From NCBI RefSeq assembly GCF_963921235.1, contig NC_086097.1, forward strand, positions 125,366,001-125,430,000: DNA of 64,000 bases. Direction: 5' to 3'. The position numbers and the translations under genes are program-made. This DNA is from Mobula hypostoma. Taxonomy: Eukaryota. Position 1 is the stretch's first letter. Each line of letters begins with the position of its first letter. This document shows positions 23,596-61,400 of this stretch, piece after piece. A model generated the notes under the pieces. That model saw only the letters and a list, made by a program, of their open reading frames with translations. It had not been told where the DNA came from and did no database searches.

Positions 23596-24301
23596 CACCG
23601 TCTTTCAACTCAAAGCAATATAAAAGGTCTTCACAGTACAGAAAACTTTAATTTGTAATTTTAAGTTATCCATATGGAATTTAACTTCGACAAATTTGGA
23701 GTGATGCATTTTGGGAAGGAAGGCTCAGTTAATGTCAGGGCTGTGGGGAGTGTTGTAAAACAGACAGACCCCCAGGGGTACAAGTACACAGTACTTCTGA
23801 AAGTGGTGACACAGGTAGACGGGGTGTGAAGGCAGGTTATGACAAATTAAAATGTGAGCTAACAATAAAATACAGAACAACTTGATCAATACCTATGGAA
23901 GAAAAATCTCAGTTAACATAGTATACTTACCGTTTGTTAACTGAACGTGTTGGTAATAAAGCTGCCATTCAACATATGTTGAACTTTACTTAAATGCAAC
24001 TATCCTTTCAAGAAGCTTTTCATAAAATACTATTATAAGGTATAAACACCATGAGGAAAACAAGATCAGAGACAATGGGATATAGCTGTCAACTAGCAAT
24101 GCTTCTATTCAAATGCTGAAAATGGCTGTATTACTCTCCATTAGTTACAATCTCCAGTATAAAGTTACAGCATTAAAATATTCTGAAAGTTGGAGCCTAT
24201 ACATTTTTGATTCAGTACTTGAGTGAATATTATAAATTGGCCATGACATGAAGGTAGTAAGGATGGAGGTGCTTAGCGCTCAAAGGAATTTATTGACTCA
24301 C

Positions 24302-24407
24302 CATCACGGTTGGTGTCCATCTGTCTGAAAATTTTTTCTGTCCTTTTCTCAGGTGTAGACTCATCTTCAGGCATTCTCATCACCGAAGAAACCATTTTAT
24401 AGATTGC
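24302..24407 (-). CDS. NCALD: Neurocalcin-delta, second coding exon (106 nt)
   Basis: Read manually: ttttatatag|GCAATCTATAAAATG... encodes [36 protein letters not shown], then donor G|gtgagt. Not in the ORF track. Confidence 0.96.
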
Positions 24408-40110: not shown

Positions 40111-40407
40111 TGATCTCCTTCAAGCTCACAAGCACTTTGGTTTGGATATATACGTTTGCCATCACTGTGTTAATTTCCAAAAAAAAGCCACCATCAGCAT
40201 AAGGAATGCTACAATTCAAGTGATGTAGCCTTGTCAGCATTGTGCAGAACTCAACTTGCAAACAAAATTATAAATAAATTCTTTCCCAAGTTAATGGTCA
40301 AGGTCCCACCACAATCAAGTAAACAACTCAAATTGAAGACGTGATCTGTCAACAAAAGTCTAAATTGCTAGTAATATCATCAAGATTCAGGACGTATTTA
40401 GCTTACA

Positions 40408-40791
40408 AACGTATAAGATCCTAAAGGGATTGGACAGGCTAGATGCGGGAAGATTGTTCCCGATGTTGGGGAGGTCTAGAACGAGGGGTCACAGTTTGAG
40501 GATAGAGGGGAAGCCTTTTAGGACCGAGGTTAGGAAAAACTTCTTCACACAGAGAGTGGTGAATCTGTGGAATTCTCTGCCACAGCAAACTGTTGAGGCC
40601 AGTTCATTAGCTATGTTTAAAAGGAAGTTAGATATGGCCCTTGTGGCTACAGGGGTCACGGGGTATGGAGGGAAGGCTGGGTTCTGAGTTGGATGATCAG
40701 CCATGATCATAATAAATGGCGGTGCAGGCTCGAAGGGCCGAATGGCCTACTCCTGCACCTATTTTCTATGTTTCTATGTTTCTATGTTTCT
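40408..40791 (+). mobile_element. CR1-clade LINE (family A, short-tail subfamily), 3' 380 nt
   Basis: Near-identical to the 3' end of 44520-47590; (TTCTATGT)3 tail. Confidence 0.92.
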
Positions 40792-41454
40792 ACAAGAATG
40801 TTTGGGAAAATGATTCAATTTGGATATAATTACAGAAAGACCCAAATAATATAAACAATTATACCATCCTTGCAACATGTTAAATTTAGGAATAGAAGAA
40901 GGGAAAAATCAACCAATTTAATACCACTATATCACCACTGTAGCTATCATGGGCTCCAAGTCAAAATCCTTTGTCTACTGAGTGCAATGGGATTACTAAT
41001 TTCTTCCAAGATGAACCATGGCAATCTGTTGCGGGCTGTTTACAGAACTTCTCAATATACTTCTTCTGAGTTACTCTCAATGCAATCTAAGCCTGTAATT
41101 TCCCTTTAAGCAATGTACTTTTGAACCATCTTAATGAACTAGCAAATTCATGATCTTCTGAAGGACTTGGTGGTCTAGGCTCTCAAGTATGCAGGTATGG
41201 CACCTTTAAACTGATGAAGGTACATCGCCATGGAGGAGAGGGAGAACGGTAGGACTCCAAGGAAGACTGAAGTGTGGAAGAATGAGAGTTCCACTTCCCA
41301 TTGTCTTGTTAGCAGATGTACAGTTGCTGGAGAACAAGTGCGAGGAGTGGCGCCCCACACAGACTTCCAATCTGCGCCTTGTAAGGCATGAAAATGCCCA
41401 ATGCAGGCCTCTCATGGTCTGAGTCAATGTTCCCTCCCCTCCCCCCCTCCCCCG

Positions 41455-42866
41455 GTAGCATTGCCTTTAAATTGTTTAACTTGGGTCCTTGGATCAAACA
41501 TTTTGGGTTACCTTCCACAAGCTTCTCACAGTAAGTTGCTGGAATTTTGTTCCATTCCTCCAGACAGAACTGATGTAACTGAGTCAGGTTTGTAGGCCTC
41601 CTTGCTTGCACATGCTTTTTCAGTTCTGTCCACAAATTTTCTATCGGATTGAGGTGAGGGCTTTGTGATGGCCACTCCAATACCTTGACTTTGTTGTCCT
41701 TAAGCAATTTTGCCACAACTTTGGAGGTATGCTTGGGGTCATTGTCCATTTGGAAGACCCATTTGCAACGGAGTTTTAACTTCCTGGCTAATGTCTTGAG
41801 ATGTTGCTTCAATATATCCACATCATTTTCCTTCCTCATGATGCCATCTATTTTGTGAAGTGCACCAGTCCCTCCTGCAGCAAAGCACCCCCACAACATG
41901 ATGCTGCCACCCCATGCTTCACGGTTGGAATGGTGTTCTTCAGCTTGTAAGCCTCACCCTTTTTCCTCCAAACATAACAATGGTCATTATGGCCAAACAG
42001 TTCAATTTTTGTTTCATCAGACCAGAGGATATTTCTCCAAAAAGTAAGATCTTTGTCCCCATGTGCACTTGCAAAGTGTAGTCTGGCTTTTTTATGGCGG
42101 TTTTGGAGCAGTGGCTTCTTCCTTGCTGAGCAGCCTTTCAGGTTATGTCGATATAGGACTCGTTTTACTGTGGCTATAGATACTTGTCTACCTGTTTCCT
42201 CCAGCATCTTCACAAGGTCCTTTGCTGTTGTTCTGGGATTGATTTGCACTTTTCGCGCCAAAGTACGTTCATCTCTAGGAGACAGAATGCGTCTCCTTCC
42301 TGAGCGGTATGACGGCTGCGTGGTCCCATGGTGTTTATACTTGCGTACTATTGTTTGTTACAGATGAACGTGGTACCTTCAGGCGTTTGGAAATTGCTCC
42401 CAAGGATGAACCAGACTTGACATCATTTTTTGACTTCAATCCGATAGAAAATTTGCGGTCAGAACTGAAAAACCATGTGCGAGCAAGAAGGCCTACAAAC
42501 CTGACTCAGTTACACCAGTTCTGTCTGGAGGAATGGAACAAAATTCCAGCAACTTACTGGGAGAAGCTTGTGGAAGGCCACCCAAAACATTTGACCCAAG
42601 TTAAACAATTTAAAGGCAATGCTACCAAATACTAACAAAGTGTTATGTAAACTTCTGACCCACTGGGAAAGTGATGAAAGAAATAAAAGCTGAAATAAAT
42701 CATTCTCTCTACTATTATTCTGACATTTCACATTCTTAAAATAAAGTAGTGATCCTAACTGACCTAAGACAGGGAATGTTTTCTAGGATTAAATGTCAGG
42801 AATTGTGAAAAACTGAGTTTAAATGTATTTGGCTAAGGTGTATGTAAACTCCTGACTTCATCTGTA
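41455..42866 (-). mobile_element. Sleeping Beauty-like Tc1 transposon, frameshifted and rearranged as a fold-back
   Basis: Minus strand 41455-42419 encodes KVQINPRTTAKDLVKMLEETG...WSDETKIELFGHNDH...FQMDNDPKHTSK...WPSQSPHLNPIENLW. Plus strand 42432-42635 repeats the C-terminus ...QVKQFKGNATKY*, followed by an IR/DR (about 42640-42864) ending GTGTATGTAAACTCCTGACTTCATCTG|TA. Confidence 0.93.
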
Positions 42867-44519: not shown

Positions 44520-47500
44520 TAGAAACATAGAAACATAGAAAATAGGTGCAGGAGTAGGCCATTCGGCCCTTCGAGCCTGCACCGCCATTTATTATGATCA
44601 TGGCTGATCATCCAACTCAGAACCCAGCCTTCCCTCCATACCCCCTGACCCCTGAAGCCACAAGGGCCATATCTAACTTCCTTTTAAACATAGCTAATGA
44701 ACTGGCCTCAACAGTTTGCTGTGGCAGAGAATTCCACAGATTCACCACTCTCTGTGTGAAGAAGTTTTTCCTAACCTCGGTCCTAAAAGGCTTCCCCTCT
44801 ATCCTCAAACTGTGACCCCTCGTTCTAGACCTCCCCAACATCGGGAACAATCTTCCTGCATCTAGCCTGTCCAATCCCTTTAGGATCTTATACGTTTCAA
44901 TCAGATCCCCCCTCAATCTTCTAAATTCCAACGAGTACAAGCCCAGTTCATCCAGTCTTTCTTCATATGAAAGACCTGCCATCCCAGGAATCAATCTGGT
45001 GAACCTTCTTTGTACTCCCTCTATGGCAAAGATGTCTTTCCTCAGATTAGGGGACCAAAACTGCACACAATACTCCAGGTGTGGTCTCACCAAGGCCTTG
45101 TACAACTGCAGTAGTACCTCCCTGCTCCTGTACTCGAATCCTCTCGCTATAAATGCCAGCATACCGTTCGCCTTTTTCACCGCCTGCTGTACCTGCATGC
45201 CCACTTTCAATGACTGGTGTATAATGACACCCAGGTCTCGTTGCACCTCCCCTTTTCCTAATCGGCCACCATTCAGATAATAATCTGTTTTCCTATTTTT
45301 GCCACCAAAGTGGATAACTTCACATTTATCCACATTAAATTGCATCTGCCATGAGTTTGCCCACTCACCCAACCTATCCAAGTCACCCTGCATCCTCTTA
45401 GCATCCTCCTCACTGCTAACACTGCCACCCAGCTTCGTGTCATCCGCAAACTTGGAGATGCTGCATTTAATTCCCTCATCCAAGTCATTAATATATATTG
45501 TAAACAACTGGGGTCCCAGCACTGAGCCTTGCGGTACCCCACTAGTCACCGCCTGCCATTCTGAAAAGGTCCCGTTTATTCCCACTCTTTGCTTCCTGTC
45601 TGCTAACCAATTCTCCACCCACACCAATACCTTACCCCCAATACCGTGTGCTTTAAGTTTGCACACTAATCTCCTATGTGGGACCTTGTCAAAAGCCTTT
45701 TGAAAATCCAAATATACCACATCCACTGGTTCTCCCCTATCCACTCTACTAGTTACATCCTCAAAAAATTCTATGAGATTCGTCAGACATGATTTTCCTT
45801 TCACAAATCCATGCTGACTTTGTCCGATCATTTCACCGCTTTCCAAATGTGCTGTTATCACATCCTTGATAACTGACTCCAGCAGTTTCCCCACCACCGA
45901 CGTTAGGCTAACCGGCCTATAATTCCCCGGTTTCTCTCTCCCTCCTTTTTTAAAAAGTGGGGTTACATTAGCCACCCTCCAATCCTCAGGAACTAGTCCA
46001 GAATCTAACGAGTTTTGAAAAATTATCACTAATGCATCCACTATTTCTTGGGCCACTTCCTTAAGCACTCTGGGATGCAGACCATCTGGCCCTGGGGATT
46101 TATCTGCCTTCAATCCCTTCAATTTACCTAACACCACTTCCCTACTAACATGTATTTCGCTCAGTTCCTCCATCTCACTGGACCCTCTGTCCCTTACTAT
46201 TTCTGGAAGATTATTTATGTCCTCCTTAGTGAAGACAGAACCAAAGTAATTATTCAATTGGTCTGCCATGTCCTTGCTCCCCATAATCAATTCACCTGTT
46301 TCTGTTTGCAGGGGACCTACATTTGTCTTTATCAGTCTTTTCCTTTTTACATATCTATAAAAGCTTTTACAGTCCGTTTTTATGTTCTCTGCCAGTTTTC
46401 TCTCATAATCTTTTTTCCCCTTCCTAATTAAGCCCTTTGTCCTCCTCTGCTGAACTCTGAATTTCTCCCAGTCCTCAGGTGAGCCACTTTCTCTGGCTAA
46501 TTTGTATGCTACTTCTTTGGAATTGATACTATCCCTAATTTCTCTTGTCAGCCACGGGTGCACTACCTTCCTTGATTTATTCTTTTGCCAAACTGGGATG
46601 AACAATTGTTGTAGTTCATCCATGCAACCTTTAAATGCCTGCCATTGCATATCCACCGTCAATCCTTGAAGTGTCATTTGCCAGTCTATCTTAGCTAATT
46701 CATGTCTCATACCTTCAAAGTTACCCCTCTTTAAGTTCAGAACCTTTGTTTCTGAATTAACTACGTCACTCTCCATGTTAATGAAGAATTCCACCATATT
46801 ATGGTCACTCTTACCCAAGGGGCCTCTCACGACAAGATCGCTAATTAACCCTTCCTCATTGCTCAAAACCCAGTCCAGAATAGCCTGCTCTCTAGTCGGT
46901 TCCTCGACATGTTGGTTCAAAAAACCATCCCGCATACATTCCAAGAAATCCTCTTCCTCAGCACCTTTACCAATTTGGTTCACCCAGTCTACATGTAGAT
47001 TGAAGTCACCCATTATAACTGCTGTTCCTTTATTGCACACATTTCTAATTTCCTGTTTAATACCATCTCCGACCTCACTACTACTGTTAGGTGGCCTGTA
47101 CACAACTCCCACCAGCGTCTTCTGCCCCTTAGTGTTACGCAGCTCTACCCATATCGATTCCACATCTTCCCGGCTTATGTCCTTCCTTTCTATTGCGTTA
47201 ATCTCTTTTTTAACCAGCAACGCCACCCCACCTCCCCTTCCTTCGTGTCTATCCCTCCTGAATATTGAATATCCCTGAACGTTGAGCTCCCATCCCTGGT
47301 CACCCTGGAGCCATGTCTCTGTGATCCCAACTATATCATAATCATTAATAACAATCTGCACTTTCAATTCATCCACCTTATTACGAATGCTCCTTGCATT
47401 GACACATAAAGCCTTCAGGCACTCTTTTACAACTCTCTTAGCCCTTTTTAATGCTTGCCCTGGATTTGTCGGCCTGCCACTTTTACTTTTCCCCTTTGTA

Positions 47501-47590
47501 CTTTTTGCTTCTACGCTCACTTTACACCCCTCTGTCTCTCTGCACTGGTTCCCATCCCTCTGTTGTGAACTAACCCCCTCACACCTAGCC
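44520..47590 (-). mobile_element. CR1-clade LINE (family A), long young copy lacking most of ORF1
   Basis: Contains an uninterrupted ORF2 and the (TTCTATGT)n 3' tail at 44520-44542. Confidence 0.95.
44617..47520 (-). CDS. CR1 ORF2: apurinic-like endonuclease plus reverse transcriptase (967 codons, no stops)
   Basis: APE motifs NARSI, ITETW, MGDFN, SDH; RT motifs [25 protein letters not shown]. Confidence 0.93.
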   Translation of the reverse strand: MSVEAKSTKGKSKSGRPTNPGQALKRAKRVVKECLKALCVNARSIRNKVDELKVQIVINDYDIVGITETWLQGDQGWELNVQGYSIFRRDRHEGRGGGVALLVKKEINAIERKDISREDVESIWVELRNTKGQKTLVGVVYRPPNSSSEVGDGIKQEIRNVCNKGTAVIMGDFNLHVDWVNQIGKGAEEEDFLECMRDGFLNQHVEEPTREQAILDWVLSNEEGLISDLVVRGPLGKSDHNMVEFFINMESDVVNSETKVLNLKRGNFEGMRHELAKIDWQMTLQGLTVDMQWQAFKGCMDELQQLFIPVWQKNKSRKVVHPWLTREIRDSINSKEVAYKLARESGSPEDWEKFRVQQRRTKGLIRKGKKDYERKLAENIKTDCKSFYRYVKRKRLIKTNVGPLQTETGELIMGSKDMADQLNNYFGSVFTKEDINNLPEIVRDRGSSEMEELSEIHVSREVVLGKLKGLKADKSPGPDGLHPRVLKEVAQEIVDALVIIFQNSLDSGLVPEDWRVANVTPLFKKGGREKPGNYRPVSLTSVVGKLLESVIKDVITAHLESGEMIGQSQHGFVKGKSCLTNLIEFFEDVTSRVDRGEPVDVVYLDFQKAFDKVPHRRLVCKLKAHGIGGKVLVWVENWLADRKQRVGINGTFSEWQAVTSGVPQGSVLGPQLFTIYINDLDEGIKCSISKFADDTKLGGSVSSEEDAKRMQGDLDRLGEWANSWQMQFNVDKCEVIHFGGKNRKTDYYLNGGRLGKGEVQRDLGVIIHQSLKVGMQVQQAVKKANGMLAFIARGFEYRSREVLLQLYKALVRPHLEYCVQFWSPNLRKDIFAIEGVQRRFTRLIPGMAGLSYEERLDELGLYSLEFRRLRGDLIETYKILKGLDRLDAGRLFPMLGRSRTRGHSLRIEGKPFRTEVRKNFFTQRVVNLWNSLPQQTVEASSLAMFKRKLDMALVASGVRGYGGKAGF

Positions 47591-48406
47591 GCTTTATCAC
47601 ATAGGAATTTGGAGAAACAAGAAATTAACTTTTATTGAATATAATGCATTTCATTGCATAATGTGCTGATGCTTTACAATACGTAGTTCAATTAGGCTAA
47701 AAATGTTTTGTTGATGATTATCATTTGTTTTCTGTCTGAGGCTTCTTGCTTAAGTGTCCAACAATAATCAGTCAGCATTGATGGATTCTAGTTGCCCTGA
47801 TACCGTTTCTCCATAACCACAATGTCCTGGTGAAACGTTTCACCATGTTCGTCACTGACAGCACCATGATTTGCAGGGAAGAAATCTTAATGGGAACACA
47901 GAAAAAGTATCTTTAATGACAAGTTGCACTTCAGGGTTTTGAATGCTCAAAGCATGTTGTCAACCAGCTGCACCTAGTTTGGTGCTCTGTAGTTGCCAAG
48001 AAAATTTTCAACAACATCCTTGAATGCCTTCCGTGCGATTTTCTCCAATCGCACTGGAAGTTCTTCAAACTGCCTGTCATTAATGACCTGATTGATTTGT
48101 GGACCAACAAAAATGCCTCCCTTCATCTTTGCATCAGTTATTCTGACTTGAATTATAAATTGAAATAGGTGATTTTTTAAAAATGGTGTGTGATAGGGAA
48201 ATTTCATGGTGATTTTCATGATCAGCAGCCCAAAATCCATAAGATACACCCAAAAGTATTCAGGAAGTAAAATCCTTGGTGTCCAGTGTGATTCAACACA
48301 GACCCAGTGAGATTATAGATTCACAAATTCTAAACAGAACTCACAATGAGAATATAAGAAAAAGCCAAGGAGTACCAGATTATCAAAACATTTTAAGGTT
48401 ACGCTA

Positions 48407-48877
<471 letters not shown>

Positions 48878-58569: not shown

Positions 58570-59800
58570 GGACTGTGCTCAGCAGTCTTCTATTTTCAAG
58601 AAGAAGTGGTACATTGCAGACAGGGTAGAGAAGGGTCCCAATAGGGTGGGCTGCCTCCGTGAGCAGGTCATATCTCTCCCTGGTAACGACCACTACACTC
58701 CGATGAAGTTCCCACCATCAACCCCTCATCCATTAGAGTGGGGTAAACCCTAAAATGACCATACTGCTGAGTAGAAACAGCAAGTCTGGTTTACTGACGG
58801 CTCCAGCGATTGATGGAGTGGCAAGGACTGGTGGAAGGATGCTGCTCTCCACCCTGTGTCAAGGAGGGGTGTTACCCAGAAGAGTGAGGGGGATCTAGCC
58901 AACTGGCTGAGCTGGTGGCCCCTCCAGGAGGCAATGAAGCTATGAGGATCTACACCAATTCCTGGGCAATGACTAATGGCATGGCAGTGTAAATACCTCA
59001 TTGGCTTGGGCGGAACTGAGAGGTGCACAGGCGACCTCTCTGGGAGCATTCCTATTGGGAACGCACCTGGAAGGATGTGCATCAACGTCCAATCATAGTC
59101 TACCATGAGATGCCCACAGCACTCAGGACACTGAGGCCATACATTATGCTGCTGTCGACCGAGCTCCGCAGATTATGACAGCCACAGTGTTTTCCAAGGA
59201 GGAGAACATGTGCCTTGCGGTATGGGCACACCAGAAGAGTGGGCATCTATGGGAGGGTAAGCGGCAAGGAAATGGGCAAAAGCCCAAGGGGTGGTGTTGA
59301 TTTTTTGATGAGACCAGGGCAGCAGTTGCGAGCTGCCCTACCTGTCAGCAGGTTATGCTTGGGGGGTAGCCAAAGGGTCCCCGGGAAGCATCCGAAGGGC
59401 ACGGGGACTAGTCAGGTATGGCAAGTAGATAGGTTGGGCCTCTGCCATCACAGAACAAGAGACAATATGTGCTCACAATGGTGGACACATATTCCGGTGT
59501 CCTACTGGTGGTGCGGTGCAGCCACGCTGACCAGGAAAGCACACTAAAAGGCTTGCGGCACTGGTCATCCATGTATAGGATCCCCTGCGAGATCCAGTCG
59601 GACAATGGCTCACATTCTGCAGGAGCCAAAATCCAGGGGTGGGCTGCGGAATCCAGCGTTCTGTGGATGTTCCACATCCCATACTACCCACAGGGGGCAG
59701 GGCTGATCCAGTGTATGAACGGGCTGTTGAAACAACAGATTAAGTTGTGACCCCCATCCGCACCTTTCAGGGGTGGCTACCTGTGCTGTAACAGGCAGTG
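58570..59800 (+). pseudogene. ERV pol remnant (connection, RNase H and integrase)
   Basis: AQQSSIFKKKWYIADR..GP...LREQV; QVWFTDGS (58781); SQLAELVA; IYTNSWAMTNG; WQVD (59419); LTMVDTYSG...IQSDNGSH...WMFHIPYYPQGAGLIQCMNGLLK. Confidence 0.88.
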
Positions 59801-60110: not shown

Positions 60111-60399
60111 GTGACAACCAGTGGGCCCACGAGGATCCGCTATGTCCTGGCACTCAGCAGTGTCGTATTCTCCAGAGGTGGAATCGGAGGAGGAACTGGG
60201 GATGGTTTGGGTTCAACACCCACAGGGGCTACCAGAGCAAGGGGAGATTATGGCACATGGATCAGGGAATAAGCGATGTGTGATTTTACCAGAGGAATGG
60301 GAGATAATCTGTCTAGATACCCAGTGACTAACCAGGTGGGAGTGAGTTTGTGTCTCCCTACATTACAGAATGGAAAAGTGGTGGAAGCTGACGGCAATG

Positions 60400-61400
60400 G
60401 TGATGTGTTGATCGGTGTGAGATCCTACAACACATTCCTACGGATGACATATGAGCACGCAAACCACATCAAAGCTTTGGACTGTTGGATCTGCATGAGG
60501 ACACAACCCACGCTGCAGAAGGGGTGCCTCTCTTTAACTCAGAAGAACAGCTCAGCTTCTCGGGATTTGCATTCCGTTCTGGGGAAAGCCGAGAGCGAAC
60601 AGTCGATTCTATCCATAGTATGGGAATGGCCTTAAAGAACTGGAGTCACAGTAACCCCGGGTGGAGTAAGGGCTGGTTCTTCCCTATTTAAGATTTGACT
60701 AATCCCAAGAGTAATCCCTCTGCCAAGAGAGAAGTGGAAGAAGTGTTGGTGCAGGCAATATGATGAGCACGGGTCCAGTCAGTCAGTGGAGCACAGTGAG
60801 TGCGAGCAGAAACAGTATCCTGGGAAGCAGTGAAGATAGGTGCTCCCTGGACGCTAAAAGGTTCTTCCTGGATATGCAGCTCCCAGGCTTCCCACAGCTA
60901 CTGCAATCCGGGGTACGTAGTACCATATATCACCTTAATAGCCTGGACGAGCACCCTGCCCATGACGGTCAGCACAGTAAGAAGCAGAAAGGTGCTGGAT
61001 GATAGCTTTTCTCTCTAACTGCTACGCATGGCCCTTGTGATGGAAGCACTGCACAACAAGACGGCCGCAGCGCTCAAGCATACGGTGGCCTCACAAAATC
61101 AGACGACCTTGGACTACCTGCGCGCAGAGAAAGGTGGCATCTGTGCTGCAATTGGACAAGAGCGCTGCACCTACATCCCCGACGAGTCTGGGAACATTAC
61201 TCATCTGGCTGATCATATCCCGTAATCAATAAATGAGATCAGAAAAGAAGAGAGCCCTGGGGGTGGGGCGGTTGAGCTGATGGCCTTTTGGGAGGCCGGT
61301 GGGCTGCTGCAAAACACTGGGTAGCAACTAGTGGGTTAATAATTCTGGGTATCATAGTGTGACATTTTCTGTGTAGTATAGTGGGGCGTCCCAAGGGTTT
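60400..61400 (+). pseudogene. ERV env remnant, gamma-type (covalent SU-TM)
   Basis: SU CxxC motif CWIC (60483-60494); TM immunosuppressive-like QNQTTLDYLRAEKGGICAAIGQERCTYIPD; hydrophobic anchor WVATSGLIILGIIV. Confidence 0.85.

Follow-up and report, generated by a model that had tools for sequence, protein, structure and literature searches.

Sleeping Beauty in a devil ray: a dead intronic copy and the very probable horizontal origin of its family

The stretch of DNA analysed here (64,000 nucleotides, hereafter the window) carries, in an intron of a devil ray, a dead and truncated Tc1 transposon of the Sleeping Beauty (SB) clade. There is little doubt in our reading that the family to which this copy belongs was acquired horizontally, from or together with the ray-finned fishes, long after the two lineages had split.

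The host and the window copy

The host was identified by protein comparison of the single-exon RAG1 gene of its 3.48-Gb genome. RAG1 was 100% identical to that of Mobula hypostoma over 955 aa and 98.7% to that of M. birostris; the values were 95% for the stingrays Hemitrygon and Hypanus, 82-84% for skate and electric ray, 78% for whale shark and 59-63% for ray-finned fishes (Salvelinus 60%). The host is thus a myliobatiform devil ray and not a teleost, in agreement with the cartilaginous fish proposed in the preliminary description. Globin exons had been tried as a host test, the best single-domain match being 1cg5, which we take to be a stingray globin, for one exon and cytoglobin for another, and RAG1 took over; at least 21 globin exon matches are clustered in about 0.9 Mb of the genome (G000:C36:102.3-103.2 Mb; L021, L023-L030).

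The SB copy lies between the first coding exon of an EF-hand calcium-sensor gene, presumably of the neurocalcin-delta type, and the next exon (about 24300-24407). The same intron holds a CR1/L2-type LINE (44620-47631, minus strand) with an uninterrupted 1004-residue endonuclease and reverse transcriptase frame. The last 381 bases of this LINE match an inverted fragment (40407-40787) at 99% identity, so its family is young. A decayed remnant of an LTR retroelement or endogenous retrovirus occupies 59433-59750 and 60273-60635, both on the plus strand, with an integrase core (Pfam rve, E=6.6e-11); the frame with a CWIC motif downstream of this core gave no Pfam match. The features of the SB copy and of its host gene are the following.

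41454..42419, minus strand: SB transposase coding remnant, codons 20-338 (94.2% identical to positions 445-1402 of the reference element L061; Pfam HTH_Tnp_Tc3_2 and DDE_3; structures 5CR4 and 5UNK)
42420..42430, minus strand: 11-base 5' UTR remnant at the rearrangement joint (3-4-nt microhomologies at its borders)
42431..42635, plus strand: inverted duplicate of the final ~205 coding bases, as far as the stop codon (L061 1207-1411; inverted repeat)
42636..42864, plus strand: right-type IR/DR of 229 bp on the 5' side of the element (218/228 bases identical to the right end of L061)
42865..42866, plus strand: TA target-site dinucleotide (sequence)
48440..48817, minus strand: EF-hand calcium-sensor gene of the host, coding exon 1 (exon peptides and Pfam EF-hand)

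All five transposase peptides announced beforehand were located in the window. Four are on the minus strand, namely those beginning RKVQ (42255-42190), LWSDETK (42027-41980), MLWGCF (41899-41828) and WVFQMDN (41761-41708), and the fifth, QVKQFKGNATKY, is on the plus strand at 42597-42632. Coding part and IR/DR therefore lie on opposite strands, and the segment 41454-41655 repeats 42433-42626 in inverted orientation at 90% identity; both facts were absent from the preliminary description. Its terminal repeat of about 225 bp with inner and outer direct repeats (DRs) and a TA end was measured as the 229-bp block listed above, with the inner DR at about 42638-42668 (carrying a 1-nt insertion) and the outer DR at about 42833-42864, 197 bp apart. 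The designation "right IR/DR" was correct for the sequence, which resembles the left end of L061 at only 67%, but not for the position, as the block sits 5' of the element in place of the left end. Read in the coding sense, the order is a mirrored right IR/DR with the last 205 coding bases (42864-42431), the UTR remnant (42430-42420) and codons 20-338 (42419-41454); the segment 42431..42635 represents the inner part of a 434-bp arm standing in for the left end.

The coding remnant contains three frame breaks (insertions of 1 nt at 42358 and of 8 nt at 41488-41495, and loss of 1 nt near 41915). Together with the missing left IR, UTR and codons 1-19, they set the copy apart from the canonical autonomous SB layout, which comprises a right IR and an intact ORF of 340 codons in addition to a 5' UTR and a left IR containing the half-DR. 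The copy breaks off at 41454, with loss of both the native stop codon and the native right IR/DR. A C-run tract (41430-41453; G4-like, minus strand) adjoins this truncated end, at the edge of a high-copy repeat (41338-41437). The sequence of the UTR remnant is present in the 5' UTR of L061 and of the two canonical ray elements described below, and the joint is common to most of 31 right-right loci compared. The window copy is a member of the right-right class which lost its native right end later.

Its membership of the SB clade was assessed at several levels. Fragments of the window match the SB structures 5CR4 (E=2.7e-42 and 3.5e-69) and 5UNK (E=3.6e-27), and HTH_Tnp_Tc3_2 and DDE_3 score above the Pfam cut-off, which indicates a Tc1/mariner element. 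The ends agree with this assignment: inverted repeats flanked by TA are typical of the superfamily, and ends of about 230 bp that contain both an inner and an outer DR, of the IR/DR subgroup. The DD34E triad (D153, D244, E279) is intact in the ray family consensus. Under the definition of Jia et al. 2022, SB-clade elements group with SB100X, share more than 80% coding identity within the clade and stand apart from SB-like elements (~61%); the ray family, with 97.3% coding identity to L061 and its place in the tree, belongs to the clade in the strict sense. The ray protein is 94.1% identical to vector SB, against 80-85% for other SB-clade proteins and 67% for SB-like proteins. When the alignments of the coding sequence and the IR/DR were run, the near letter-for-letter match to SB put forward in the preliminary description, non-coding part included, was recovered in the window copy (against L061, 94.2% over 967 coding bases and 218/228 in the right IR/DR). 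A 73-residue protein recorded under 'Edwardsiella tarda' (P0377; 222-base contig) also clusters with SB transposase and is likely fish DNA in a bacterial record.

The reference L061 comes from a metagenome scan (3 loci out of 130 candidate stretches), and its source being a metagenome contig, it is termed salmonid-type by identity alone. It is an intact, TA-flanked element of 1639 bp at contig positions 1113-2751, its terminal sequence is that of the SB end in a published primer, and it diverges from L062 by about 1%. Its frame is fully open and its protein differs from the SB transposase of the pT2/Gene-Trap vector at 4/340 residues; we take these four differences to be the SB11 changes, in which case L061 would encode SB10. 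Judged from its sequence, L061 is possibly an active wild Sleeping Beauty. A search of a plasmid collection with the SB vector ends gave no match. In the accessible part of the Jia 2022 supplement, the first 400 coding bases of L061 show about 3 differences, counted by eye, from the Coregonus SB row.

Structure and decay of the ray family

Ray loci collected by DNA and protein searches were sorted into three structural classes. The right-right class consists of L061 positions 445-1639 plus an inverted arm of positions 1206-1639, which gives terminal inverted repeats (TIRs) of 434 bp. In the deletion class, the left IR (1-223) is fused to position 394 and both the UTR and the start codon are missing. 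The canonical layout was found only in L064 and L081, two 1.63-kb fossils. Both class joints are fixed across copies, and the right-right joint bears microhomologies of 3-4 bases. Exact 22-mer counts over the genome gave 390 occurrences of the right-right joint, 86 of the deletion joint and 89 of a left-IR motif, and a shared coding motif was found 480 times with the ray alleles and 0 times with the salmonid alleles (reversed controls, 0). Since the exact joint is kept in 20/32 and 14/24 of the sampled copies, the family would number about 800-1,000 copies; the 58,801 first-look candidates were not taken as a copy number. The 5' UTR occurs at least 3 times according to the DNA search.

Twenty right-right copies were picked by their junction on one contig and carry the inverted arm by construction; in 20/20 of them the arm starts at L061 position 1206, and 24/31 of their termini are flanked by TA. 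One breakpoint shared by many insertions, with long TIRs that contain coding sequence, is the signature of a lineage in which the 5' part has been replaced by the 3' part. These copies lie on average 4.2% (K2P) from their consensus, or 3.4% when CpG sites are removed, and individual decay ranges from 2 to 5%. In the tree the ray copies form a star lacking supported structure (bootstrap not settled), each at 0.019-0.045 from the centre, and the branch from the star to the salmonid type measures 0.026. The copies radiate from a single founder. Decay is nearly neutral, with pN/pS of 0.79 and 0.85, values biased down by the choice of the best protein matches; 88 stops were counted across 56 ray copies, and all sampled copies are broken or devoid of a start.

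The class consensus omitted duplicates (L018, L038, L072) and short or double-ended loci. Among the latter, L002 and L004 are MITE-like elements of about 620 bp with two right ends facing each other, and L005, L011 and L019 each consist of one right arm of about 400 bp. In L043 a deletion-class copy is accompanied by a further right IR next to its left end. L082 has a shorter inverted right arm (from 1291) and 60 bases of left DR and UTR, and is a possible intermediate or an independent right-right event. The M. hypostoma gene model LACTB2 isoform X2 (XP_062921089.1) consists mostly of SB transposase (about codons 52-262) followed by a short host tail, as the result of either exonisation or an annotation error.

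These structures are compatible with the following course of events. One autonomous invader, of which the two canonical fossils would be the remains, may have founded the ray family. In an early derivative the 5' UTR and the start codon would have been deleted with the left and right ends kept; in another, microhomology repair would have swapped the left IR for a 434-bp mirror image of the 3' end, with loss of the beginning of the gene. The autonomous transposase could then have moved both derivatives in trans, by cut and paste, into TA sites. The right-right form would have out-multiplied the left-right form about 4:1 before the family presumably died.

The right-right form, which outnumbers left-end copies 390 to 89 (about 4:1), keeps four DRs and a normal length and is devoid of the left IR, the half-DR and the start codon. 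Right-right SB is specifically weak. According to the parts of the papers available to us, SB transposase binds four DRs and synapsis begins at the left inner DR (PMC5224488, PMC7827188, PMC8151067), duplication of the left end raises activity (same three papers), and laboratory SB prefers the left end (PMC5224488, PMC8151067, PMC7827188, PMC4505599). The excess could be due to chance, that is to an early origin and a founder effect rather than to the suitability of the ends to the ray transposase, and we lean slightly towards this explanation. The right-right and left-right consensus sequences are near-identical (4 differences in 1195) with overlapping ages, and the left half-DR is an enhancer which is not essential (PMC7827188, in the part seen). 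Against chance, the form reached its excess without being clearly older, and the left IR is the most diverged part of the ray element (8% vs 3.5% for the right IR), with a fixed T-to-A change in the core of its inner DR. This change is a possible cause of the right-right excess, no more likely than a founder effect. More speculatively, and we regard it as doubtful, an SB variant from a freshwater-fish sublineage of the Heterotis/Pangasianodon type, its left inner DR already weak, would have had its end preference reversed in the ray, so that the form with two right ends would have become the best substrate. Such a reversal would amount to a natural experiment that speaks against the left-end-first model of SB synapsis, and it would supply right-right vector ends selected in nature.

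Origin of the ray family

Between the ray consensus and L061, 28/1018 coding bases, 8/228 bases of the right IR (96.5% identical) and 18/223 bases of the left IR differ, with dS of 0.043 and dN of 0.024; this distance is smaller than the decay of most ray copies since their insertion. As a host-gene control we used, instead of NCALD, one RPL3 exon (64 codons, 192 bases) counted by eye from supplement rows. Between the ray and the Salmo row 26/62 same-residue codons differ, with 29 synonymous changes over about 45 sites (pS ~0.64), and between the ray and the Heterotis row 29/61 differ, against 9/321 same-residue codons for the transposase of the ray consensus and L061. If the lineages split at 473 Myr and vertebrate synonymous sites change at a rate of 3.1e-9, the values given in the part of PMC7070016 consulted, vertical descent would predict a synonymous distance of about 2.9. 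The dS of the element is thus far from saturated and far below the pS of the host exon, and horizontal transfer, first proposed from the non-coding conservation, is borne out by a right end at 96.5% identity beside a near-saturated RPL3. In the protein tree the ray copies fall inside ray-finned SB diversity, the ray and salmonid groups being sisters at a key node with a support of only 82/77 in a tree of few taxa which holds no Heterotis or catfish row.

The salmonid connection drawn in the preliminary description stands as far as near-identity to the salmonid-type SB is concerned, but a salmonid donor does not fit the alleles. Seven of the 17 residue differences between the ray and L061 are ancestral states common to outgroup SB-clade proteins (Sparus, Prochilodus), so salmonids would be cousins and are unlikely to have been the donor. 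The ray-type AGA CAA at codons 96-97 was found once in the readable text of the supplement, in the row SB-Hetnil, and was recognised by eye in the row SB-Panhyp; we read these abbreviations as Heterotis niloticus and Pangasianodon hypophthalmus. The ray-type ATT, TGC and CAG at codons 63, 115 and 133 are also in both rows. Over their first 400 bases, the rows for eel, tarpon, tuna, Beryx, milkfish and salmonids in the accessible text lack AGA CAA. This link, drawn over the first 400 bases of each row, consists of two changes outside CpG, in neighbouring codons, together with CpG-prone sites. It suggests that the nearest known carriers are the Heterotis and Pangasianodon elements and not those of salmonids. 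Since, among the rows compared, these derived alleles are common to two teleost rows only, the ray element appears nested inside fish diversity, and transfer from fish to ray is likely the more parsimonious reading. Its age would be 11-14 Myr at the vertebrate mean rate, or several-fold more at elasmobranch rates.

Transfer from ray to bony fish, or into both from an unknown third carrier (parasite, virus or invertebrate), is less probable, though not to be neglected. The ray copies (mean K2P 4.2%) are more decayed than the gap between L061 and L062 (~1%), so that the ray burst may predate the salmonid burst, and one mollusc with SB is recorded in the part of PMC9777934 seen. The same text records SB-clade diversity in 107 ray-finned species, and the ray-type derived alleles occur in two teleost rows and are absent from the eel, tarpon, tuna, Beryx and salmonid rows, both of which argue for the fish-to-ray direction.

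Vertical descent from the jawed-vertebrate common ancestor, with extreme conservation or domestication, is highly improbable. The very low elasmobranch mutation rate (7e-10 per generation in the epaulette shark, PMC10587355) means that a 3-4% decay of ray copies could be old. Descent would nonetheless need almost no synonymous and non-coding change over 473 Myr on the teleost branch alone, which rules it out even with very slow mutation in rays. The dS of 0.043 and the 3.5% divergence of the right IR stand against the RPL3 pS of ~0.64, and the broken or start-less state of all sampled ray copies speaks against conservation or domestication.

Sequencing runs bear on the purity of the assembly: 17/24 run rows contain half of the query words, and among 4 runs examined one has flanks and ray alleles and three, the top ones, have salmonid-type alleles and no flank. 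In protein searches for the ray-type alleles in other sharks or rays, 1/232 scorable proteins carried them, that one from M. hypostoma, in a protein set where gene models mask transposons and lengths are limited. Contamination or misassembly, by which teleost DNA or an SB vector would lie within the ray assembly, might be suspected from these three runs and from the closest named relatives, which are salmonid proteins and a cloning vector, but its probability is negligible given the 480 ray-allele against 0 salmonid-allele matches, the many large contigs carrying copies with distinct flanks, TA ends and individual decay of 2-5%, the independent run which spans the right end and its flank over 366 bases with zero differences, and the M. 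hypostoma gene model with the same alleles as the ray copies.

Comparison with known systems

The open-access literature searched yielded no report of SB in rays, and it is not mentioned in the manta preprint, the Squalomix preprint, PMC13320814 or the 2024 HTT preprint. In the part available, Jia et al. 2022 (PMC9777934) list SB in 107 ray-finned species and one mollusc and no chondrichthyan; their Table 1 gives SB TIRs of up to 415 bp, and their supplement may bear on novelty. As far as their accessible text goes, Kuraku et al. 2012 (PMC3516227) describe Tc1 transfers between teleosts and lampreys and no Group 1 elements in cartilaginous fish, and the only chondrichthyans in Zhang et al. 2020 (PMC7070016) are Callorhinchus and Rhincodon, with no batoid among five names searched; neither reports the ray SB case. 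PMC12361510 (2025), in the part seen, describes how TcMar elements expanded in skates and rays and does not analyse transfer. New here are the host group, cartilaginous fish, and the rearranged variant with two right ends; Tc1 transfer among fishes and replacement of 5' by 3' sequence are of already known kinds, and no new mechanism is involved. Cartilaginous fish, a group with few recorded transfers, are added to the hosts of the best-studied vertebrate transposon, the family offers a datable marker of contact between rays and bony fishes, and right-right dominance makes the enhancer role of the left end directly testable with standard SB assays.

The ray family resembles SB itself (SB10/SB11/SB100X; 5CR4, 5UNK) and the salmonid-type elements in a DD34E transposase 94-95% identical at the consensus level, with D153/D244/E279, ends with inner and outer DRs, a TA target and canonical fossils of 1.63 kb. 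It differs in its chondrichthyan host and in a dominant form with two right ends, devoid of left IR, half-DR and start codon. SB-Hetnil and SB-Panhyp share with it codons 63, 96-97, 115 and 133, but over the first 400 bases seen both rows are more decayed. Like the cases of Kuraku and Zhang, as far as these could be consulted, it is a Tc1 element crossing a deep vertebrate split in water and detected by a low synonymous distance. The closest structural parallels are Rpmar49 and Rpmar17 of Rhodnius prolixus, in which 3' sequence has taken the place of the 5' part (Filee et al. 2015, PMC4678618, in the text available). As in these, a non-autonomous lineage with very long, coding-containing TIRs would have been amplified in trans in the ray; the insect elements are mariners with short simple TIRs and 13 and 205 copies, whereas the ray right-right form is an IR/DR element whose laboratory version favours the left end and which carries an extra 5' UTR remnant at its joint.
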